From: an uncultured Candidatus Binatia bacterium
GTDB lineage: Bacteria; Desulfobacterota; Binatia; Bin18; CBDCRK01
Assembly (NCBI GenBank): GCA_965220955.1
Contig: CBDCRK010000039.1
Coordinates: forward strand, 4,694 to 68,693
Direction: 5' to 3'
Length of the DNA stretch: 64,000 nt
Under the pieces are notes generated by a model, which saw only the letters and a program-made list of their open reading frames with translations, was not told the DNA's origin and searched no databases. Shown in pieces: positions 4,444-45,463 of this stretch. The position numbers and the translations under genes were made by a program. Each line of letters starts with the position of its first letter. The first letter of the stretch is position 1.

Positions 4444-5271
4444 ATGACGAACAGAGACATTATCAACGCAGACCTGGGGAGAGCCCGCAGGCGTAAAGGC
4501 GCCGTGTGGGTCGTTTTGTTCATTGCGGTGCCAATATGGCTCTGCTCCGGGGCCGCGGCTCAGGCGGACGGCTTGTACTTCCGGGCCGGGGGCGGTGTCG
4601 ATTGGTCGGAGGAGACGCGGTTCAAGGACAAAGACTGTTCGGGCCGCGCGCGGCTGGCCCTGTACGGCTGTGGAGCGGGCATCGACGGGGCGCCCTTGAG
4701 TTCGCTTGGCGATTTCGGCGTGCTGGGCAACTACGAGCTCGGTGCCGGCTACGGCGTGGCAGACGCCCTGCGGCTCGAAGCCGTCTTTCAACACCGTCCA
4801 AGCTTTTCCTTCAAGGGCCGCGCCAATTTCGTGCAGACCAGGGGCCGGCAAGAGACCTCCGCGGACATGTCGTCCCTGTCCGGCATGCTGGCCGCGTATG
4901 TAGACCTCCCGCGGCTGGGCCTGCCGAAGCTCGGTCCGTTCAGCCCGTTCATCGGGGGTGGGGTCGGCATCTCTCACACCGATATCAACAAAACCCGCAT
5001 GAGGTTCACAAAGACGGCGACCATTGTGCCGGGCGGACAAGAGCTCAATTTCGCCTGGATGCTCACCGCGGGGGTCGGGACACCGCTGACCGAGAAAATA
5101 ACGCTCGACGTTGCCTATCGTTATACGGATTCCGGCACGGTCGAGACGGACAACGGTATTGCAAGGGTTGTGAATCAAGCCGGGACCACCCTGGTTCCTC
5201 TTGATATAGGCAAGACGCGGGGGCACCTGGCAAGCCACGGACTGCATCTCTCCCTGCGCTACACGTTCTAG
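4444..5271 (+). CDS. Opacity/OmpA-like outer-membrane beta-barrel protein
   Basis: Signal peptide, PFIGGGVG, FAWMLTAGVG, LDVAYRY, C-terminal LRYTF. Confidence 0.8.
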   Translation: MTNRDIINADLGRARRRKGAVWVVLFIAVPIWLCSGAAAQADGLYFRAGGGVDWSEETRFKDKDCSGRARLALYGCGAGIDGAPLSSLGDFGVLGNYELGAGYGVADALRLEAVFQHRPSFSFKGRANFVQTRGRQETSADMSSLSGMLAAYVDLPRLGLPKLGPFSPFIGGGVGISHTDINKTRMRFTKTATIVPGGQELNFAWMLTAGVGTPLTEKITLDVAYRYTDSGTVETDNGIARVVNQAGTTLVPLDIGKTRGHLASHGLHLSLRYTF

Positions 5272-6827: not shown

Positions 6828-7124
6828 GATATCCCAAGACACCCCTTAAGATATCCCCTTAAGATTATCCTTGGTTAGCTACCCCGGTTAGATACCCCAT
6901 TTGGGCAGAGTTGGAAGAGCAAGCAATAAACAACTAAGAGTTTGGACGCCCACCCTTTTTATCCCCCCTCGCTCCCAAAGGCAAGGGAAATTGGGAGCAA
7001 AATCCGCAGGCTCAGGGAGCTGGCGCGCCGAAGCCACGAGCAGGCATACCTGGCGGGATGTGAGTTCTTGACAAAGGGGGTTTTCTCAGGCAGACAAAGA
7101 GGGCGCAAGCACAAGGAGGAATCT

Positions 7125-21325: not shown

Positions 21326-21398
<73 letters not shown>

Positions 21399-21402
21399 CT
21401 TC

Positions 21403-22131: not shown

Positions 22132-22386
22132 ATGACGAATGTCAAGACCGCAATTTCGCTGCAAAAGTCGCTCTTTGAGCAGGCGGAAGCCTTAGCCAGC
22201 GAGATGAAAATCTCACGCAGTCGCTTGTTTGCGCTTGCCCTGCAAGACTTTATCTCTCGCTCTCAGAACCAAGAACTGCTTGAGCAAATCAACACTGCAT
22301 ACGAGGACATTCCAGATCCAGGAGAACTTGTTCTTCAACGCCGCATGCGCCATCAGCATCGACGGATTGTCCAAGACGAATGGTGA
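22132..22386 (+). CDS. Ribbon-helix-helix antitoxin (ChpI/MazE-like)
   Basis: VKTAISL...ISRSRLFALAL; overlaps the downstream PemK toxin. Confidence 0.8.
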   Translation: MTNVKTAISLQKSLFEQAEALASEMKISRSRLFALALQDFISRSQNQELLEQINTAYEDIPDPGELVLQRRMRHQHRRIVQDEW

Positions 22387-22736
22387 TCAACCAAGGCGAC
22401 ATCTTCTGGATTGACCTGGATGAACCTTTGGGCTCTGAACCCGCGTACCGCCACCCTCATGTAGTTATCCAGAATAACGTCTTTAACCGCAGCCGGATCA
22501 AGACGGTCATAGTGTGTGCTCTGACGTCAAATCTTATACGCGCTAGGGTGCCGGGAAATGTGCTCCTCAATCCAGGGGAAGCCAACCTCCCCAAGCAAAG
22601 TGTGGTTAATGTCTCTCAGATTTTTACGGTGGACAAAACCCAGCTGAGCGAAAAGATCGGTACACTTTCGGCTAGGCGAGTGCAGGCAATTCTCAGGGGC
22701 ATAAGACTACTTACCGCACCACGCGATCCCGAATAA
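22380..22736 (+). CDS. mazF: PemK/MazF family endoribonuclease toxin
   Basis: QGDIFW, GSEP, HPHVVIQNN, ALTSN, SVVNVSQIFTVDK. Confidence 0.92.
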   Translation: MVINQGDIFWIDLDEPLGSEPAYRHPHVVIQNNVFNRSRIKTVIVCALTSNLIRARVPGNVLLNPGEANLPKQSVVNVSQIFTVDKTQLSEKIGTLSARRVQAILRGIRLLTAPRDPE

Positions 22737-25616: not shown

Positions 25617-26438
25617 CTACCGCCCCTTATACCCAGGATTCGTTGGCTTTTCGAGCCAATCCCGGCGTTTTTCGTAGGGCAGGTTAATATAGGTCTTCAT
25701 AGCCAGCAGCCCGTCGTCCGACAGCATTGTCTCCAGAAACGCCGAGCTCTCAATATCAAGGCCTGCGGAGAGATGGGTATCACTTCCAGCATACACGGCA
25801 TGCTTGGCGCGGGCCACGGCCAGTGGCGGAAAACTGGCAATCTCGTTGGCAATTTCCTGTGCCCGGGCAAGGGCATTGTCGGCCAGCTCGTGGACAAGCC
25901 CCAGAGCCAGCGCCTCCTCAGGAGGCACAACGCGGGAGCGCAAGACAAACTCGATCGCCCGGCCGGCGCCAATAAGACGGGACAGTCGCTGGGTGCCGCT
26001 GCCGCCGGGCAGAATGCCCAACTTCACCTCGGGCAACCCGAAGCGGTAATCGCCGCGCTGTCCAATACGAAGGTCACACGACAGACTGAGCTCGAAGCCT
26101 CCACCCATGGTGTCGCCGTTCATAGCCACAATCACGGGCTTGGGCAGATCACGCAGGCGCAGCAGCATGCCATGGTAGCCAGCAGTGAGCGACGTTCCTA
26201 AGGCACGCATGCCTTCACGGTTACTGGCCAGTTCAACTAGCTCTTCCACCGAATAGTGGGTAATGAATTTGCCCTCTATAGCCCCGGTCAGCACTACAGC
26301 GCGTATGGCTGGATCACGCCACGCTTGGATCAGGGCATTAAATTCTTGGGTTCCCTCGGCGCAGAAGTAATTCATCGGCGGGTTATTATAGGTTGCAACC
26401 ACAACCCCACCTTCAACCTGGGTTGTCCAAAGACTCAT
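25617..26438 (-). CDS. Enoyl-CoA hydratase/isomerase family protein
   Basis: PKPVIVAMNG, GGGFEL, CDLR, PEVKLGILPG. Confidence 0.9.
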   Translation of the reverse strand: MSLWTTQVEGGVVVATYNNPPMNYFCAEGTQEFNALIQAWRDPAIRAVVLTGAIEGKFITHYSVEELVELASNREGMRALGTSLTAGYHGMLLRLRDLPKPVIVAMNGDTMGGGFELSLSCDLRIGQRGDYRFGLPEVKLGILPGGSGTQRLSRLIGAGRAIEFVLRSRVVPPEEALALGLVHELADNALARAQEIANEIASFPPLAVARAKHAVYAGSDTHLSAGLDIESSAFLETMLSDDGLLAMKTYINLPYEKRRDWLEKPTNPGYKGR

Positions 26439-26553
26439 GGTTCAGCCTCCTTTCTGGTTGTTGTTATGGGCTCCGGATGTGTCCGCCATTTCTTCGTACT
26501 TATTTCAGTCGCCCTACACCTCCCTGCTTGTCCCAGAACGTCCACGAATCAAC

Positions 26554-27321
26554 TCAGAGGTAGTCCCGCTGAAACTCGCTTGAAAGTGGACACATGGTAT
26601 CGACATCCCAGTCAAAGGTGAGGACCACAGAGCGATCCGAACGGTAAGCAAGCAGTCGTCTACCATCTTTAATGACAAGACTTTCCGCCTGCATAAAATC
26701 CAGCGTTTCCTCTTTGCCCGTGCGGTTACACACAATAAGCGGAAGACCCGTCTCCCTGGTCCGTTGTTCCCACTCGCCCTCAGGACCGTGGAGGCCAGGC
26801 CCCCACGCAGCTGAGGAGACGAGGATTTGCGTCCCTTGCCGCTTCAGCGTCTCGGTGACCTGCCTTGTATAGGCATCCGCGCAAATCAGCAGACCGACCT
26901 TGAGGGTCTGCCATTGGATTGGCAAGATCGTCTCGCCGGGAGTGGCCCAGAGGTCAGGGCGCGTGTTGATCTTCCGATGTTTCCCCAGGAGCTCCCCAGT
27001 GGAGTTGATGAGAAAAACGGAATTGTAGAGCTTATCAGTCTGTCTATCTCGCTCAGGACCGCCAACAAAGACCGTAATCTGTAACCTATTTACCAGCTGA
27101 CAGAACTCCCTCATCCAGCTATCGGGTTGAGGCGCAATCCAGTCGGTGCCGACCAGCCGGGAAAACTGATAGCCCGAGACCGCCAGCTCTGGTGATACCG
27201 CCCAGTCTGCTCCTTTTTCAGCCGCTCGCTTGATCGCCTGTGCAAGCAACCGGCGGTTGTACAAAAGATTCCCTGGCACGGGAGCAATGTGTAGGAGGGA
27301 TATTCTTAAGGGGGCGGTCAT
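26554..27321 (-). CDS. Carbon-nitrogen hydrolase (nitrilase/amidase) family protein
   Basis: Glu-Lys-Cys triad in SPEL, HRK and LICAD. Confidence 0.85.
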   Translation of the reverse strand: MTAPLRISLLHIAPVPGNLLYNRRLLAQAIKRAAEKGADWAVSPELAVSGYQFSRLVGTDWIAPQPDSWMREFCQLVNRLQITVFVGGPERDRQTDKLYNSVFLINSTGELLGKHRKINTRPDLWATPGETILPIQWQTLKVGLLICADAYTRQVTETLKRQGTQILVSSAAWGPGLHGPEGEWEQRTRETGLPLIVCNRTGKEETLDFMQAESLVIKDGRRLLAYRSDRSVVLTFDWDVDTMCPLSSEFQRDYL

Positions 27322-27412
27322 AAATGAGGGCAACTTGGTTTTCAGTACTATGCTGATTTTTCCTTCAAATAGAGCGCTGAGGGGTGAAAAGAATCGGAGA
27401 AGAGGCTAGCCC

Positions 27413-27560
27413 TTACCTTCTGTTCACCACTTTGAGGAGATCATCAAACTCCCCCCCGTCTAGCCAAATGCCACGACATTTTGGGCAGGTGTCTATGACC
27501 ACTGACCGGTCGATGGCACTGTATATTCGCAGCAGAGTCGTTGCGTCGCGCGGGCACTGG
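27413..27560 (-). pseudogene. zf-TFIIB zinc-ribbon fragment
   Basis: CPRD...IDTCPKCRGIWLDGGE; 5' side abuts an argS-like fragment and has no start of its own. Confidence 0.6.
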
Positions 27561-27640
27561 CTGCGGCCAGCGCTTGGGTCGTCTTTTCTTCGAGCAGCTG
27601 TTGAATCGTTGACATAGCGATTGGGATAACGGTGCGTTTG
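27556..27640 (-). repeat. argS-like 5' fragment, copy 1 (leader plus ~20 codons)
   Basis: ATG at 27615: MSTIQQLLEEKTTQALAAAS; direct repeat with 29590-29675. Confidence 0.6.
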
Positions 27641-27666
27641 CGCCCCATTTATAGTCCGAGCTTGTA

Positions 27667-28266
27667 TCAAATGGTCCTCAAGCGGTCCAGAAGCTCTTTG
27701 GCGTGAGGACATGCGGCTTCGACGCGAGTTGGATCGACTTGCGCCAGCAAGTCGAAGGAGACCCTGCCCTTGGCATAGGGTTTCGAGCATTTAGCGGTAG
27801 CTCTCTGGAGTGCGTCGAGCACCGTCTTCTTGGGCACATCCTCCAACTGAGGCCATTGCCTGAGCGCGTTTTCTGCAAACTGTGCGCCGAAGTATCTTCG
27901 CAATGCATCGCGGTCGGCCAGGAACCAAGTCTCCATGATCTGAACCATCAGAAAGGCCTGACCGTCGCCGGCACCTCCGGGCTGATTCCAATGGTCGCGT
28001 TCTTGCAGGTGCTGCCAGACCGAGCGGCCCGCCTTAACCGAGGCCTCGCTGTCCACGAGGAGGAGGGGAACGATGTCCGGACGAGGGTCTGCGACGGCCG
28101 TGGCAAAGAGGTCGAAAGTTTTGTCGCGCCCGCCGCCCCGCACAACCCTCGGCATCTGGCTGCCGAGTTCAGCAGACTTGAAAAATTCGCTCCAACCTTC
28201 ACGAAAACGTGCGCCGAGATCCCTCGAGTCGCCGCCGCCCTCAATGTAAAGCTTGGCGGTTACCAT
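27667..28266 (-). CDS. DUF4276 family protein (TOPRIM/RloB-like putative nuclease)
   Basis: LYIEGGG, LLVDSE, MVQIMETWFLAD; start overlaps the ATPase stop. Confidence 0.8.
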   Translation of the reverse strand: MVTAKLYIEGGGDSRDLGARFREGWSEFFKSAELGSQMPRVVRGGGRDKTFDLFATAVADPRPDIVPLLLVDSEASVKAGRSVWQHLQERDHWNQPGGAGDGQAFLMVQIMETWFLADRDALRRYFGAQFAENALRQWPQLEDVPKKTVLDALQRATAKCSKPYAKGRVSFDLLAQVDPTRVEAACPHAKELLDRLRTI

Positions 28267-29504
28267 CGGTTTCCGCCCAATTCGCCCGAAGTCCAAAGAG
28301 CCCCAAGACGGTATTTTTCCAACCACTTCGCAAGATCGTCCTTGTCGAGACGGCGCATCTCGGTCTGTCCATTGTGCTTTTCACAGACTACGATGCTCTC
28401 CGGTGTTTCGGTCAGCGCATCGACAAGCACATCCGAATGGGTCGTCACGATCAGTTGACTACGTTCGGACGCTGCGAGCAGTAAATCTCTCAACGTGGGT
28501 AGCAGATCCGGGTGCAGGCCGAGTTCCGGCTCCTCGATCGCAACCAAAGGCGGCGGCTCGGGGTGCATCAGAATGGCCAGTAGGCACAGGTAGCGTAGTG
28601 TGCCGTCCGATAGGCGAGTGGCCGGAATCGCGCGGTTGTTGTCTTCTTCCAGGAATAGTGCCACTGTACCACCCGCCACGGAGTAGGTGACATCGACGAT
28701 GCCATCAAAGAGCTTCTGCAATGCCTTGACGAGTTGCCGCTTTTTCTCTCCCGAGAAGTGCGACAGCACAAGCGCCAAGTTTTGCCCTCCTTCGTCCAGG
28801 AAGTCGGCGCGGTCGTGCGCGCTCTGGTTTTGGCGCAACTCTGCCGAAGGACCAAACGCCCAGTTCCGGTAAAGGCGAATACGTCCGTACTGTTCCTTCA
28901 GATGCCAAAGCGCCGGGTAATCCGGATTGGCAGCGTACGAGAGCAACGACTGCTCGGGTTGCATCTCACTGGCGAAGTCGATAGCGCCCGGGCGAGAACG
29001 GGCGAAGAGGCGCGGTGTCGACCATTCGCCGGCGCCCCTCTTCCTCTTGGAATCCAATCGCGCCGCCTCTGCGTTGGCGTTCGAGATTTCTAACGCGGCC
29101 TGCTCATCCTGAGGGGGGCGGTAATAGGACAGGGCGGCGCGCTCGTCGGCGTGCGTCTCCGAGGGCTCAACCTGCTCGTCAGTCACCTCGGGGCGACCGT
29201 TCTGGTCGGCCAGCCTTAACGAATGCCGCAGCACGCCGCCCAGCGGATAGTCGACCATGGCCTCCATGCTGATCGAATGCGGCGCGCCTGATCCCTTCCA
29301 CAGCCACTCACGAACACCGCCCATGCGTGAGATCGGTTCTGAGATACCGCGTGGCGCGGCCTTGAGCAATGCAATCGTCTCCAGAAAGTTCGACTTTCCC
29401 GATCCGTTCGGGCCGATGAGGACGTTCAGTGGTTCCAGGGGCAAGTCGATCCCGCTTGGTCCGAAGGAAAGGAACCCCGAGACCTTCAGTCTATGGATTA
29501 GCAT
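28260..29504 (-). CDS. ABC-type (AAA_21-like) ATPase
   Basis: GPNGSGKS, LSDGT signature, IEEPELGLHP, TTHS, C-terminal LGALWTSGELGG. Confidence 0.9.
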   Translation of the reverse strand: MLIHRLKVSGFLSFGPSGIDLPLEPLNVLIGPNGSGKSNFLETIALLKAAPRGISEPISRMGGVREWLWKGSGAPHSISMEAMVDYPLGGVLRHSLRLADQNGRPEVTDEQVEPSETHADERAALSYYRPPQDEQAALEISNANAEAARLDSKRKRGAGEWSTPRLFARSRPGAIDFASEMQPEQSLLSYAANPDYPALWHLKEQYGRIRLYRNWAFGPSAELRQNQSAHDRADFLDEGGQNLALVLSHFSGEKKRQLVKALQKLFDGIVDVTYSVAGGTVALFLEEDNNRAIPATRLSDGTLRYLCLLAILMHPEPPPLVAIEEPELGLHPDLLPTLRDLLLAASERSQLIVTTHSDVLVDALTETPESIVVCEKHNGQTEMRRLDKDDLAKWLEKYRLGALWTSGELGGNRW

Positions 29505-29544
29505 GCCATCTCCTCGTCTAGCACTTCATCCGCCGGGCGCGTCC

Positions 29545-29675
29545 GTCGGATTGGCCGCCGGGTTGACCAGGGCAGGGGCCGAGGTCCCGCTAGCCGCGGC
29601 CAGCGCTTGGGCCGTTTTTTCTTCGAGCAGCTGTTGAATAGTTGACATAACAATTGAGATAGCAGTAGCGTCGGG
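29545..29675 (-). repeat. argS-like 5' fragment, copy 2 (leader plus ~34 codons)
   Basis: MSTIQQLLEEKTAQALAAASGTSAPALVNPAANP resembles the ArgRS N-terminus and breaks off just before the expected FGDYQ motif. Confidence 0.6.
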
Positions 29676-30009
29676 CCAACAACATATATAGCAAATACCG
29701 TTCTGTATTCGCAAGAGTTACAGCACGCGGCGATTTGCGTCGGTCCCGGCTTTGTGTCATTTTTTTGCTGGGAATGTGGAATTAGACAAGAACGCAGGAC
29801 AAGATCCCGGTGCGAGCCGGGTTAGCGCACAGCCGGCGCAGTGGCGCGAATGGCTCAGCCGCTCTGCGTTCGGTGCGCGGGGTGGGCAATGTTACCTACC
29901 GCTGATTATTGACGATGTGCTGGACCACGATGTCGTGCGGCGCGGACAGCGGACCGTGCACTGCCTCTTTGGCCACATTCCGGCCACGGCCGCCGCGGGC
30001 AAGCTGTGT

Positions 30010-30237
30010 ACACAGGTGGCCGGCTCCGGCGAGGTTATGCGTTTTAAACCGGACGGCACTGTTGATCGGCGGATCAACATCCCGGCAAAAACAATCACCA
30101 GTGTGGCCTTCGGCGGTCCTGATATATGTGACCTGTACATTGTTACCGCCAACAACGATCAGCGAGATCTGAAGGGCACGGTTTTCCGTTCCCGTTCAGA
30201 GATTCCCGGTTTGCCGGTGCCCAAGGCAAAGTTCTGA
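30010..30237 (+). pseudogene. SMP-30/gluconolactonase C-terminal fragment
   Basis: VMRFKPDG...ITSVAFGGPD..DLYIVTA; upstream part of the ORF is unrelated sequence. Confidence 0.75.
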
Positions 30238-30263
30238 GGCCGATTGTGCCAAAGGGAGGTATG

Positions 30264-30584
30264 CTAGGCAGCTTTCGTCTCTGGGGGCTTGACCTCCACG
30301 GAGAGCTTCAGCCCGACGCTCTCCAACACAGCCTCAAGGGTGGAAAAGCGAGGATTGCCCTTGCGGGACAGCGTTCGGTACAAGCTCTCACGGCTCAGTT
30401 GCGTATCCAGAGCGATCTGTCTGATGCCTCGGGCCTTTGCGACATCGCGGAGAGCCAATAGGAAGACTTCTGACTCCTTGTCGGATTCGTCCTCTAGGGC
30501 AGCGTTCAAATAAGCCGCGGCTTCTTCAGGATCTTGGAGATCCTGATAGAGGATGTCTTCGTACGGAACGATTCGCTTTGCCAT
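30264..30584 (-). CDS. Addiction module antidote protein (HigA-like HTH)
   Basis: AAAYLNAALE, LALRDVAKARG, LSRESLYRTLS, GNPRFSTL. Confidence 0.9.
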   Translation of the reverse strand: MAKRIVPYEDILYQDLQDPEEAAAYLNAALEDESDKESEVFLLALRDVAKARGIRQIALDTQLSRESLYRTLSRKGNPRFSTLEAVLESVGLKLSVEVKPPETKAA

Positions 30585-30588
30585 ACGC

Positions 30589-30921
30589 TTATCTCCCAAT
30601 ATGATCAGCCCAATACTCTCGGGCCTTTTTGATATCTGCCGCTTGGGTCCGTTTAGTTCCTCCACACAAGAGGGGGATTAAACGGGAGCCGTCTTGTCCG
30701 ATATACACCCGGTATCCCGGGCCGATATCTACGCGTAGCTCTAACACCCCGCGGCCGACAGATTTGTGATCTCCCAGGTTGCCTAGGCGGAGCCGTGCTA
30801 TCCTAACGCGAATACTATTTCGCGCTTTCCGGTCTGTCAGCTGACGTAACCAATCCGCAAATGGGGTACTACCATCGGCTGCCACGTATGCTACGACTCG
30901 CCGATATCGCGCCTCAGACAT
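30589..30921 (-). CDS. RelE/ParE family toxin (addiction module killer protein)
   Basis: PFADWL, RLRLGNLGDHKSVG, ELRVDIGPGYRVY, LLCGGTK; upstream GTAGC-N6-GCTAC palindrome at 30930-30945. Confidence 0.92.
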   Translation of the reverse strand: MSEARYRRVVAYVAADGSTPFADWLRQLTDRKARNSIRVRIARLRLGNLGDHKSVGRGVLELRVDIGPGYRVYIGQDGSRLIPLLCGGTKRTQAADIKKAREYWADHIGR

Positions 30922-31068
30922 ACCTTATGGTAGCGTATAGGCTACTTTTCTGCAACACTTTGACAATTAGGCTGGGGAAGGCCGTAGGTATCCTGCGTGA
31001 AGTGCCCTTGCGACCTGAAAACGACCCATCCGATCGGTTAAGTTCAGTACCCAGAATCTCAAGGAACG

Positions 31069-31350
31069 TCAGCGGTAGAACTCCACATAGAAGCGAACGC
31101 TGCCGATGGCTTCGACCTCATGTGGAACTTCGGGCTCTACCACCCCGTACTTGTCCGAGCAGAGTTCGATCTCCTCAATCTCTGGCTCAAGGATGCGGTA
31201 TCGCAGCTTCCCCTCCAAAACGACGATCTTTGCCCAGGTCCCAGCCTTGGTTCGGTGGGATTCCAGCAGGTTGTTCGGTATCGTTTCTTCGGTGAATTCG
31301 GAGGTTTTGGCATAATCCGAAACCTCTGCGGGGAGTGTTTTCATAGCCAC
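31069..31350 (-). CDS. DUF1971 (YeaR/TehB N-terminal-like cupin) protein
   Basis: FTEETIP, HRTKAGTW, VLEGKL, PHEV, FYVEFY. Confidence 0.85.
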   Translation of the reverse strand: MAMKTLPAEVSDYAKTSEFTEETIPNNLLESHRTKAGTWAKIVVLEGKLRYRILEPEIEEIELCSDKYGVVEPEVPHEVEAIGSVRFYVEFYR

Positions 31351-31371
31351 ATCTCCATTACATATTCAGCC

Positions 31372-31821
31372 TTACGACGACACCCCCGCTTTGACGACCA
31401 GTGAGGCGTAGCTGACCCCGTCGCCATTATCCGTACTAATCGGCAGCCCCGCATCACGCCAGCCCACCACTGCCCGCCCGGCCGGGTTCTGCCCACCACC
31501 AAATCCGCCCTGCATATTTGTCACATCGCTGTAGCCGGCCTGCTCCATGATCTCGGCGGCGTGTTGGGAACGTCCCCCCGCCTGGCAGCCGACAATCACC
31601 GCCACTCCTTTGGCAATATTGGCCTCGACAACCGCCTGAAAATGCGGATTCGGACTGGGTTGGCGGGTGGCCAGATCAAAAAAGATGACCGGAATATTAA
31701 TCGCGTCCTCGGGATGACCGGCGGTAAATTCGGCCTCGGTGCGTACGTCAAGATAGATGACCGACGGATCACTGCTCAGGGTCTGGTGGGCTTGGGGCGG
31801 GGTAGTTTGTTTGACTGGCAT
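31372..31821 (-). CDS. Rhodanese-like domain protein
   Basis: YLDVRTEAEF, GHP, CQAGGRS active-site loop. Confidence 0.88.
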   Translation of the reverse strand: MPVKQTTPPQAHQTLSSDPSVIYLDVRTEAEFTAGHPEDAINIPVIFFDLATRQPSPNPHFQAVVEANIAKGVAVIVGCQAGGRSQHAAEIMEQAGYSDVTNMQGGFGGGQNPAGRAVVGWRDAGLPISTDNGDGVSYASLVVKAGVSS

Positions 31822-31954
31822 ACACGACTCCTCTCTTTCGTTAGCAACCAGAATTTTATATAGAACCAGAGCCAGCCAGAATATGTTCGGTGATCCTGTA
31901 CGCCCAGTCAAGCGGGGAAGCGGTAGGAACACCGAGGCACAAAAGGAGAACACA

Positions 31955-32747
31955 ATGGGAGACGCCGTAGTGTTAGAACGTCAAGGCCGCGTTGCCACAA
32001 TTACCCTCAACCGCCCCGAGCAGTTCAACGTCATGAACACCGAACTGTCGATTGGCTTACGCCAGTCTCTCCAGGAGTGCGCCGATGATACGGAGGTCCG
32101 GGCTGTTATTCTGACCGGCAACGGTCGGGCCTTTAGCGGTGGAGGGGATATCAAGTTTTTTGTCAGTGAGCTGCAAACCCAAACCATCGGACCCAGCTTT
32201 GAAAAGATGATGCCCAATGCTGCACGCGGCGATTTCTCTGGTCCGCGAAATGCAAAAGCCAGTGATTGCCGCCCTCAACGGCGTGGCGGCAGGCGGAGGG
32301 CTGGGTTTGGCCCTGGCCTGCGATTTTCGGATTATGTCTGCCAAGGCCAATCTGGTGACCGCCTTTGTTGGCATTGGGGCCAGTCCAGACTCTAGCTCAA
32401 CCTTCTTTTTGCCCCGCTTTGTTGGCATGGGAAAGGCAACAGAACTCTTTATGCGCAACACCCCGGTCTCGGCCCAGGAAGCGCTCGATCTGGGCTTGGC
32501 CACCGCGGTTGTCCCTCCCGAAAACGTTCTGGAAGAAGCCATGCGCCTGGCCGATGAGCTGGCCCAAGGACCGACCGCGGCATTTGGTCGGACCAAGCTG
32601 CTCTTAAATCAGAGCTTTGGCAGTTCTTTCCAAGAACAGCTCCACAGTGAAGCGCGCTCAATTACCATCTCGGCCCAGTCACCCGATTTTGCCGAGGGTG
32701 TGACGGCGTTTGTGGAAAAACGTAAGCCGAGCTTTAAGGGCAAGTAG
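31955..32747 (+). pseudogene. Enoyl-CoA hydratase/isomerase (PaaG-like), frameshifted near 32215
   Basis: N-terminal half (ITLNRPE, FSGGGD) and C-terminal half (KPVIAALNG, FVEKRKPSFKG) lie in different frames. Confidence 0.8.
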
Positions 32748-42804: not shown

Positions 42805-42935
42805 AGCGTGCTCAGGATACGCGGATAGCCGATGTAGGGCAGCAGGTTTAAGACGGTTTCATACATCTGTAGCTCGCTGAGTCCGGCGTCTTTGCCCTCG
42901 CTGAAGAGCTGCTCGGCGCTGATTCGGACCTGCAC
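42805..42935 (-). pseudogene. Carboxymuconolactone decarboxylase-like fragment
   Basis: [23 protein letters not shown]. Confidence 0.5.
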
Positions 42936-42963
42936 CCTAGCGATCACACGAGAGGCTGTTGCT

Positions 42964-44651
42964 ATGAGCGCGAATAATACTCCTGCTGACTTTATCCGCG
43001 AGATTATCGCCACCGACCTCAGGGCCAACAAAACCGGCGGCCGGGTGGTGACCCGCTTTCCGCCCGAACCGAACGGCTATCTGCACATCGGCCACGCCAA
43101 ATCCATCTGTCTCAACTTTGGTATTGCGGCCGAACACAGGGGGGTGTGCCACCTGCGGTTTGACGATACCAATCCGACCAAAGAAGACCTCGAATACGTG
43201 AGGTCTATTCAAGAGGACGTCCGCTGGCTGGGATTCGACTGGCAGGCAAACTGTTCTACGCCTCGGACTACTACGAGCAGCTGTACCAGTACGCCGTGCA
43301 CCTGATCACAAACGGCAAGGCGTATGTGGACAGCCTGAGCGCCGACGAGATACGCGAGTATCGCTGGACCCTGACCCAGCCGGGCAAAAACAGTCCGTAT
43401 CGAGACCGGTCTGTCGCGGACAACCTCGACCTGTTTGCCCGCATGCGCGCCGGTGAGTTTGAGGACGGCAGCCAGGTCTTGCGGGCCAAAATCGACATGG
43501 CCTCGCCCAATCTCAATATGCGCGACCCGGTGATTTACCGTATCCGTCGGGCCACCCACCATCGGACCGGGGACATGTGGTGCATTTACCCTATGTACGA
43601 CTTTACCCACGGTCAGTCTGACGCCATTGAGGGCATTACCCATTCGATTTGTACGCTCGAGTTTGAAGACCACCGGCCCCTGTACGACTGGTTCCTCAAG
43701 GAGTTGCCGGTGCCGTGTTACCCGCAACAGATCGAGTTTGCCCGACTCAACCTGACCTACACCGTGATGAGCAAACGCAAGCTGTTAGAACTTGTCACCA
43801 ACCGGCACGTCACGGGCTGGGACGACCCGCGTATGCCGACCCTCAAGGGCTTGCGCCGCCGCGGCTACACGCCGGAATCGATCCGCAATTTTTGTGAGAA
43901 CATCGGTGTCGCCAAGCGCAACAGCGTGGTCGATATGGCCATGCTTGAGCACTACGTGCGGGACGATCTCAACAGACGCGCCCCCCGGGTCATGGCCGTG
44001 CTGCGTCCGCTGAGGGTCGTGATTGACAATTATCCGCCCGACCGTGTCGAACAGCTCGACGCCGTCAACAACCCCGAGGACCCCAGCGCCGGTACCCGTC
44101 AGATGCCGTTTTCGCGGGTGGTGTACATTGAGCAGGACGATTTTCGGGAAGCCCCGCCCCGAAAGTTTTTCCGTCTTGCGCCGGGTCGTGAGGTCCGGCT
44201 GCGCTATGCGTATATCATCAAGTGTGTTGAGGTGGTCAAAGACGACAGCGGCAACACTGTTGAGCTGCACTGTACCTATGACCCGGAAACCCGCAGCGGT
44301 GGGTTGGCCGCGGCCCGCAAAGTCAAAGCAACCCTGCACTGGGTATCGGCCACCCACGCCATCCCGGCCGAAGTGCGGCTGTACGACAGTCTGTTCACCA
44401 AACCCGACCCGGACAATGTCGAAGCCGGACACAGCTATACCGATTTTCTGAATCCCAACTCCCTGGAGGTGCTGCCGGCGTGTCAGCTCGAGCCCGGCCT
44501 AGCCGTAGCGGAGGTCGGCAGTCGGTATCAGTTCGAGCGCCTAGGCTATTTCTGTGTTGATCCGGATTCGGTTGAGGGCCAGCCGGTCTTTAGTCGAACG
44601 GTGACCCTGCGGGATACGTGGGCAAATATCCAAAAGGCGGGCAAGGGTTAA
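42964..44651 (+). pseudogene. glnS: Glutamine--tRNA ligase with a single frameshift near 43245 (or a sequencing error)
   Basis: [18 protein letters not shown] and RFDDTNP in the first frame; [37 protein letters not shown] in the second. Confidence 0.9.
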
Positions 44652-44724: not shown

Positions 44725-45129
44725 TCAGCGTTTGAACGGATCCAGTACGTCCACACCGAATTGGCGAAAGTCACGCACATTTCGGGTCACAACGGTCAGC
44801 CTGTGCACCAGGGCTGTCGCCGCGATCATGGCGTCTTCGATCAGTGTGTCCGACTTTCGATGCTTGAGCCGCGCCCATTCCCTGAAAGCGGCCGCATCCA
44901 TGGGCAATACGCCGTAGGAGCCAAGGACTTTGTTGAGCCAGGTTTCCAACTCCTCCGCCTTTGCGTCGTCCTGCTCGCGTGTCATCTCGATACCGGCCTG
45001 AATCTCTCCGACCGTCACCGCCGATAGAAAAAGCTGATCGGCAGGGATATTCGCAATCCAACTCAGGACCGCCTTGTGCGGGTTGGGGCGCCGCAGTTCG
45101 GAAACGACGTTGGTATCAAGAAGATACAT
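44725..45129 (-). CDS. vapC: VapC family PIN-domain toxin
   Basis: YLLDTNVVSE, EIQAG, DAMIAATA, VTRNVRDF. Confidence 0.93.
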   Translation of the reverse strand: MYLLDTNVVSELRRPNPHKAVLSWIANIPADQLFLSAVTVGEIQAGIEMTREQDDAKAEELETWLNKVLGSYGVLPMDAAAFREWARLKHRKSDTLIEDAMIAATALVHRLTVVTRNVRDFRQFGVDVLDPFKR

Positions 45130-45133
45130 CGGC

Positions 45134-45394
45134 CTACTCGAAGGCCGGGGACGCCCGATGACGATGCTTCGGACGCGGTGGCGTCAGCGCATCCGTTCGC
45201 GCTTCCGGCGCGAGGAGGAGTTCCTTCAAGTCAGGTCTCGTCATCTGTTGTAATCTCCGCCACTGCTCAATTGGCACGAGCACCGCCGCTTCCACACCTC
45301 GCTTGGTCACGATCTGGGGTCCCTCGGCGAGGCTCGTTTCGAGCAACTCGCTGAACCGCGCCTTCGCGTCTTGAACCTGCCATGTTCTGCTCAT
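45134..45394 (-). CDS. Phd/YefM family antitoxin
   Basis: WQVQDAKARFSELL, GPQIVTKRG. Confidence 0.92.
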   Translation of the reverse strand: MSRTWQVQDAKARFSELLETSLAEGPQIVTKRGVEAAVLVPIEQWRRLQQMTRPDLKELLLAPEARTDALTPPRPKHRHRASPAFE

Positions 45395-45423
45395 GGATTC
45401 TCCCGGAAACTGGATTGCCTTAT

Positions 45424-45463
45424 GACTAGACGTAAAACTAGTCCGGTCTCCGCTCAATGTCAA
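45424..45463 (-). promoter_or_regulatory. Sigma70-type promoter with overlapping operator for phd-vapC
   Basis: Minus strand TTGACA-17 bp-TAGTTT; GACTAG-N8-CTAGTC palindrome over the -10. Confidence 0.6.

Follow-up and report, generated by a model that had tools for sequence, protein, structure and literature searches.

HEC-01 (Hma-embedded candidate 01) is a candidate system of an ABC (ATP-binding cassette) ATPase and a TOPRIM protein that was found embedded in Hma systems, as its authors describe it (10.1101/2024.01.29.577857). In PARIS, the ABC ATPase AriA is paired with the TOPRIM nuclease AriB, a member of DUF4435 that cleaves tRNA (PMC11464382). Restriction-modification genes are described as inserting with a target duplication of >30 bp that is single copy in relatives, the insert being <20 kb without a mobility gene (PMC2853133). 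The window analysed here is a stretch of 64,000 nucleotides (nt) from an uncultured Candidatus Binatia bacterium (assembly GCA_965220955.1, contig CBDCRK010000039.1, positions 4,694 to 68,693, forward strand), whose genome is a 5.13-Mb, 47-contig assembly with 3.2% contamination. Near its middle, two copies of the start of argS, the arginyl-tRNA synthetase (ArgRS) gene, flank a pair of intact genes, an ABC-type ATPase gene and a DUF4276 gene, that was assigned to HEC-01 (Table 1). The most probable explanation, to which we give a probability of about 0.7, is that an HEC-01 islet was inserted with a long duplication into the argS start of g4, a Binatia-type genus of a sister family, and that a 2.35-kb piece of this occupied locus was later imported into the genome of the window, a member of a different family from g4.

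The window pair agreed with HEC-01 in its end-to-end profile matches, gene order, and overlapping stop and start, the two genes sharing 7 nt. The ATPase matched the PADLOC profile HEC-01A (PDLC04177) with an E value of 1.2e-142 over residues 1-414 and profile positions 3-393 of 393, and the DUF4276 protein matched HEC-01B (PDLC04201) with an E value of 6.6e-68 over positions 1-198 of 202. The AriA (1.9e-35), mad3, AbiLi, and Old models of PADLOC-DB scored far below those of HEC-01, the AriB model was not found among the 10 PADLOC matches of the small protein, and Pfam gave DUF4276 alone for it. By these profiles, the pair is an HEC-01 candidate anti-phage system, although it is not embedded in an Hma system and has argS-start repeats at its flanks instead. 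It resembles PARIS in the two-gene architecture of ABC ATPase and TOPRIM protein but differs in that its nuclease belongs to DUF4276 and not to DUF4435. The OLD-family nucleases and GajA of Gabija differ further, since ATPase and TOPRIM are fused in one chain there.

The motifs GPNGSGKS, SDG, IEEPE, and TTHS of the ATPase were invariant in 20 sequences and were read, with names given by eye, as Walker A, signature, Walker B, and H-loop. In the DUF4276 protein, E10 and D73-S74-E75 were invariant in 24 homologues and provide the conserved glutamate and the acidic DxD-type motif of the TOPRIM superfamily, here in the form DSE and not DxD. DUF4276 domains carry the catalytic residues (PMC12065111). 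A structure model built from the 24 homologues reached a predicted local distance difference test score (pLDDT) of 93.9, and its four top structural matches were all TOPRIM nucleases from ABC-ATPase defence systems, with OLD, AriB, and GajA as the best. A Foldseek search of the model against PDB returned nothing at E <= 0.001 (top match 6nk8_B, E 0.07). By these structural matches the protein has a TOPRIM fold, and the ABC-ATPase/TOPRIM architecture proposed in an earlier note on this DNA is borne out by the PADLOC profiles and the structural matches of the model. Compared with L004 and L041, two relatives described below, the pair showed dN/dS ratios (nonsynonymous to synonymous substitution rates) of 0.16-0.39. 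Among viral contigs, one distant homologue with 43% identity was found and no phage vehicle was seen. The resemblance to OLD, Gabija, and PARIS suggests a defence function, in which the ATPase would sense an infection cue and release or activate the TOPRIM nuclease against DNA or RNA.

The repeat search revealed that the two genes were flanked by a direct repeat of 77 nt (27557-27633 and 29590-29666) with 87% identity and a spacing of 2033 nt, while four further direct-repeat families within 27000-30300 were each <=30 nt. When 27540-27680 was searched against the whole 5.13-Mb genome, just these two copies were matched. Both copies lie on the minus strand, with ATG codons at 27615 and 29648, and encode MSTIQQLLEEKT(T/A)QALAAAS; their coding parts differed at 6/60 bases, five of them synonymous and one exchanging Thr and Ala, and the leader held five additional differences. 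Copy B matched the ArgRS N-terminus of the window's own genome and that of L041 over ~34 codons, and copy A ended after 20. The repeat of about 80 bp around two genes, the mostly synonymous differences, and the origin of the copies from ArgRS starts were all read correctly in the earlier note. Copy B ends 21 nt upstream of the ATPase ATG, and GACGAGGAG within that spacer resembles a ribosome-binding site by eye. Alignments showed that the A-type leader of the window was common to L004, G003 and, partly, L041, and the junction between DUF4276 and leader kept a short common TTTGA(TACA). An origin of the DUF4276 3' end from a duplicated argS promoter was rejected, as the ...LLDRLRxL C-terminus was conserved at loci unlinked to argS. 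Each argS' copy also contains a GC-rich hairpin (29596-29615 and 27563-27582, + strand; argS codons 15-21) that is terminator-like on the antisense strand. This hairpin was predicted to be conserved across 9 argS starts, with one covarying pair (AU in 4, GC in 4), and its 3' foot is the site of both the L041 repeat end and the copy A truncation. A recombination hot spot at these codons was considered and rejected, two events ending there being too few. An Rfam search of 26000-31500 gave no match at E <= 0.1.

A pattern scan for two argS-start copies, 1935 nt apart in this case, found the locus L041 in genome G047 of genus g4, on a Binatota-labelled contig. In L041, argS (459+ aa, intact up to the contig end, where it is open) was followed by DUF4276 and the ATPase, after which come an argS' stub of 21 codons closed by a stop and, in divergent orientation, the dprA-topA-trmFO genes. 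The insert was ~1.9 kb with two genes, and the two argS-start copies were identical over 71 nt, from -8 to +63. The argS-dprA site was also examined in the g4 sister genomes G037, G026, G005, G024, G022, and G003. In the first five (5/5), argS lay directly beside dprA without the islet, and the empty-site sequences L032, L034, and L035 matched either flank of the L041 insert at 94-98% identity, the two alignments overlapping by ~71 nt. Together, the five empty sites and the occupied L041 indicate that the ~1.9-kb islet entered the argS start with a long target duplication; as judged from these alignments, it was inserted once into the first argS codons in genus g4, duplicating leader and start over ~70 to ~150 nt. 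The argS alleles with and without the pair that the earlier note had suggested looking for in related genomes are represented by L041 and the five sisters. Its model of an integrase-less islet that entered the argS start and duplicated it holds in g4 and is not supported for the window, where the same structure is best read as a displaced fragment.

In G003 (locus L042), the site was decayed: intact argS was found behind an islet-type leader, together with DUF4276 fragments and a broken dprA, and the deletion was the equivalent of window 28210-29829. Within 3600-4840 of L042, dprA was fragmented, the native argS promoter region was lost with the ATPase, and argS (572 aa) was intact. Because argS is intact though its native promoter region was deleted, the islet-type leader or the DUF4276 remnant is suggested to supply its promoter. 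In the 1.8-kb contig L004, with an ATPase 87% identical, DUF4276, leader, and argS start met in the same way at the contig end, a junction that was found in only 3 records of the genome collection. The downstream (A) leaders all shared features missing from native leaders, and the L041 A copy changed to the recipient's own sequence at -8. The synonymous divergence (dS) of the islet between the window and L041, 0.71-0.96, was of the same order as that of argS across the genus, 0.12-0.68. Of the 56 genomes of the order, only G047 and that of the window contained two strong argS-start copies. Around the ATPase relatives, ArgRS was absent within 5 kb at 26 loci (best tblastn E 2.2), an argS start being found only at the L004 contig end, and a metagenome scan with the argS-start pattern gave 0 matches.

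In the window's genome, the single argS (587 aa, contig C2) and the dprA-topA-trmFO genes (contig C35) were both intact and not adjacent to each other. Positions 29548-29902 of the window, covering copy B, the intergenic region, and the dprA' stub, showed 80-81% identity to g4, whereas the genome's own argS start was ~70% identical to the window stubs on a rough reading; the argS dS between the window's genome and g4 was >2. At the left junction, copy A meets a Zn-ribbon gene midway along its length, a gene that relatives have complete, and the two sides share GCCAG(T)G. Genome G006 (locus L044) encodes the full two-domain Zn-ribbon protein, with the GCCAGTGCCCGCGCGAC stretch in its middle. 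CPRD was rejected as a mark of a degenerate Zn-ribbon, the same CPRD being present in the whole genes of G006 and G040. The right-hand join, from the dprA' stub to a polyprenyl-synthase fragment, shares ~5 nt by eye. Since the genome's own argS and dprA are intact elsewhere, the stubs are nearer to g4, and the left join falls inside the Zn-ribbon gene, the islet with its two argS' stubs and the dprA' stub is best read as a 2.35-kb horizontally acquired piece of an occupied argS-dprA locus, of which at least the left end was apparently joined to local genes illegitimately, at short microhomology. The view of the earlier note that the rest of argS was lost later is not supported, given the intact argS and dprA and the nearness of the stubs to g4. 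An ancestral argS-dprA locus that decayed in place after second argS and dprA copies had taken over would account for the divergent dprA'-argS' order kept in the window and for the other decayed genes in the region. It would leave unexplained why the stubs are much nearer to genus g4 (80-81% at the nucleotide level) than to the genome's own argS, why its own dprA is still found in the dprA-topA-trmFO order on another contig, and why copy A runs up against the interior of an unrelated Zn-ribbon gene, complete in relatives, and such decay is highly improbable.

Direct repeats of a gene end around a cargo are the usual footprint of site-specific integration. SXT/R391 in the 5' end of prfC and e14 and phage 21 in icd insert with a substitute gene end, so that the gene stays functional, and they have their own integrase and a short core site. 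The islet is similar in that a housekeeping gene is kept functional by a substitute end, but no recombinase was seen at it. Essentially as modelled in the earlier note, the islet could be a cis-mobilisable satellite whose repeats are the attL and attR sites of a recombinase that has its gene at another locus, acts on the argS 5' end, and supplies a substitute start. The L041 copies identical over 71 nt fit this explanation, and so do the first 33 nt of argS, which are the same in window copy A and both L041 copies and differ at 1 to 5 positions in other g4 genomes. However, no recombinase or transposase family was found among the Pfam matches of the open reading frames (ORFs) of 13.9-45.5 kb of the window, a dedicated integrase search not having been run, and argS, the pair, dprA, topA, and trmFO take up the L041 contig. 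No second element was found at the site, and the other 54/56 genomes of the order were without a second argS-start copy. The repeat end also varies, from codon 21 in L041 to about codon 34 in the window, and all A-type leaders are of one origin, which fits a single insertion better than repeated targeting. An att-flanked satellite is therefore unlikely.

The closest known mode of mobility is insertion with long target duplication. The islet shares with the restriction-modification class a small defence block, the lack of a mobility gene, a repeat of >30 bp that is single in relatives, and a variable duplication length. In L041, the insert is <20 kb, the repeat is >30 bp, and the cargo lacks restriction and modification genes. 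The islet differs from that class in its cargo, an ABC-ATPase/TOPRIM pair in place of R and M genes; in its target, which is the start of an essential gene, close to the promoter, so that it comes to lie inside the operon of that gene; and in the later movement of the window structure together with its flanks.

Flanking repeats at other HEC-01 loci were surveyed at a threshold of E <= 1e-3. Among the ATPase relatives, 2 of 22 loci had a flanking direct repeat, L008 (136 nt, 87.5%) and L014 (23 nt). A further 80 loci were examined, of which 75 carried the pair and 70 had a flank long enough for the test; a repeat was present in 3 of the 70, L057 (63 nt), L073 (15 nt), and L046. L046 is the same record as L014, and L049 likewise duplicates L021. 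In the control with mismatched flanks, a repeat was seen in 1/205. The L008 repeat (4837-4972 and 6856-6991) consists of a leader and ~17 codons of a small downstream ORF, and in L057 the repeated sequence comes from a flavoprotein gene upstream, at its 3' end. These alignments indicate that long target duplications recur at unrelated targets in three phyla, which speaks against a special tie to ArgRS. The earlier note had drawn a parallel to PARIS, in which AriB cleaves tRNA. A functional tie to ArgRS or tRNA is not indicated when other HEC-01 loci duplicate other targets, and ArgRS or tRNA-Arg as the partner of the nuclease found no support. In L008, which is Gemmatimonadota-labelled, the stop of the upstream stub overlaps the ATPase ATG (ATGTTGA). 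In L007, from a genome related to that of L008, the upstream stub alone was kept (4780-5010).

The joins in the window were also found in contigs of other sequencing runs, with cover judged from the listed contigs only, 57 further matching pieces lying outside the listing. A 4730-nt contig of run X1 spans 27300-29762 with 3 differing letters and represents a slightly different strain, because two of the three letters are common to X2 and X5. A 1767-nt contig of run X2 spans 27300-28143. The repeats and the left junction are thereby covered by contigs of two DNA studies. Contigs of two RNA libraries labelled sponge metagenome (28979-29670 and 29101-29655) bridge copy B and the ATPase without a differing letter. 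They fit transcription from the imported argS promoter region, and the islet appears to be transcribed. That the islet may be read from the argS promoter, as the earlier note suggested, agrees with its position downstream of the argS promoter region. Upstream of copy B, a weak promoter-like site (TTGCGA, 17 nt, CTATAT; 8/12 matches by eye) was seen that fell below the threshold of the promoter scan.

Several results weigh against an islet that was inserted in g4, imported, and is now transcribed for defence. The single HEC-01 homologue assayed gave no defence in E. coli against the phages tested (10.1101/2024.01.29.577857). A flanking repeat is lacking at most HEC-01 loci (present in 2/22 and 3/70). 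The three closest relatives of G047 are without the islet, so that a single old insertion would call either for more than one precise loss or for recombination that transferred the islet later, two routes that the data do not separate. The contigs of the RNA libraries may stem partly from DNA and can give no transcription start, and the promoter scan gave 0 sites passing the consensus threshold. Finally, the right-hand junction near 29762-29900 was unbridged by the listed contigs, and an X1 and X2 contig shares 29900-30220 with a different left flank. That flank reads like more of the polyprenyl-synthase gene and may represent an allele without the imported fragment. These last observations would also be expected if the window arrangement, or at least its right-hand end, were a chimeric metagenome assembly from different populations, and the 47 contigs, the 3.2% contamination, and several neighbouring pieces 80-88% identical to another genus point the same way. 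Such a chimera is nevertheless very unlikely: the 4730-nt contig comes from another run and differs at 3 positions, so that the two are not just one assembly seen twice; the joins recur in X2 and in the RNA libraries; both junctions have short microhomologies (the right one by eye), like real illegitimate joins; and a bridge may exist among the pieces outside the listed contigs.

Under the explanation of insertion in g4 followed by import, the islet would first have landed in the first argS codons, either through staggered breaks with repair or through single-crossover integration of a circle carrying argS' homology, duplicating leader and start. The resulting order is the argS promoter region, the argS' mini-ORF, the ATPase and DUF4276 genes, a second leader, and intact argS, in which the islet would ride on the promoter of an essential gene and be co-transcribed with argS. 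Homologous recombination between or through the repeats could then lose the islet precisely or pass it on. The imported 2.35-kb piece would have comprised the dprA' stub, the intergenic region, the 34-codon argS', the two genes, the leader, and the 20-codon argS', and would have entered an unrelated region through illegitimate recombination at short microhomology, with the donor promoter region retained. On this account, occupied, empty, decayed, and transplanted sites form a natural series for one small defence islet, and the long-target-duplication route known for restriction-modification genes would extend to an ABC-ATPase/TOPRIM candidate system. An islet could sit within an essential tRNA synthetase operon and then cross bacterial families with scraps of its old neighbourhood, and small defence islets would move without a recombinase of their own. 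It is quite unlikely that HEC-01-type pairs are mobile in their own right, the nuclease and ATPase making or exploiting distant staggered breaks whose repair duplicates 60-150 nt, with landing in an essential gene wiring the pair into an operon. If so, selection for argS expression would keep the pair transcribed and make imprecise deletion costly, which would amount to addiction without a toxin.

Table 1. Features of the HEC-01 islet and its flanks in the window
Feature	Position	Strand	Basis and remarks
Zn-ribbon gene, C-terminal half	27413..27562	-	Pfam PF13453 1.7e-11; 5' side cut by foreign fragment, out of frame with copy A
argS' copy A	27556..27615	-	First 20 codons of donor-type argS; ends at Zn-ribbon junction, microhomology GCCAG(T)G
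Islet-linked A-type argS leader	27616..27666	-	Alignments; starts directly after DUF4276 stop, within TTTGATACAAG
HEC-01B / DUF4276, predicted TOPRIM-like nuclease, 199 aa, intact	27667..28266	-	Pfam DUF4276 8.5e-17; PADLOC HEC-01B 6.6e-68
HEC-01A, ABC-type ATPase, 414 aa, intact	28260..29504	-	Pfam AAA_21 1.1e-35; PADLOC HEC-01A 1.2e-142
argS' copy B	29526..29648	-	40-codon mini-ORF: ~34 ArgRS-like codons, then TDAPGG-stop
Donor-type argS leader and argS-dprA intergenic region	29649..29751	-	Alignment; 80-81% identity to five g4 genomes over 29548-29902
dprA' stub, ~50 codons of donor-type 5' end, frameshifted	29752..29905	+	tblastn, L041 DprA residues 16-88, 53-55% identity, two frames
Gene debris in one ORF: polyprenyl-synthase fragment, then SGL (SMP-30/gluconolactonase) C-terminal fragment	29903..30237	+	Pfam PF00348 1.5e-06, PF08450 1.3e-12

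The dprA' stub, the polyprenyl-synthase fragment with its DDxxD region, and the SGL C-terminal fragment lie in a single open frame (29752-30237, +). Genomes of genus g4 match the SGL piece at 83-88% identity, at a distant place in their chromosomes. Directly adjoining this debris is a pair of a Gp49/HigB-like toxin and an HI1420-type antidote (30264-30921, -), and the window further contains MazF (22380-22736) and a pair of the PIN/Phd type (44725-45463). At a distance of 6 kb from the islet is a tRNA-Thr(CGU) gene (21326-21399, +), after which come a PhyH fragment and toxin-antitoxin genes, with no integrase seen. A GlnRS/GluRS-type synthetase (42892-44651, +) and an enoyl-CoA hydratase (31757-32747, +) are each split into two overlapping ORFs, which represent either frameshifted genes or sequencing errors.

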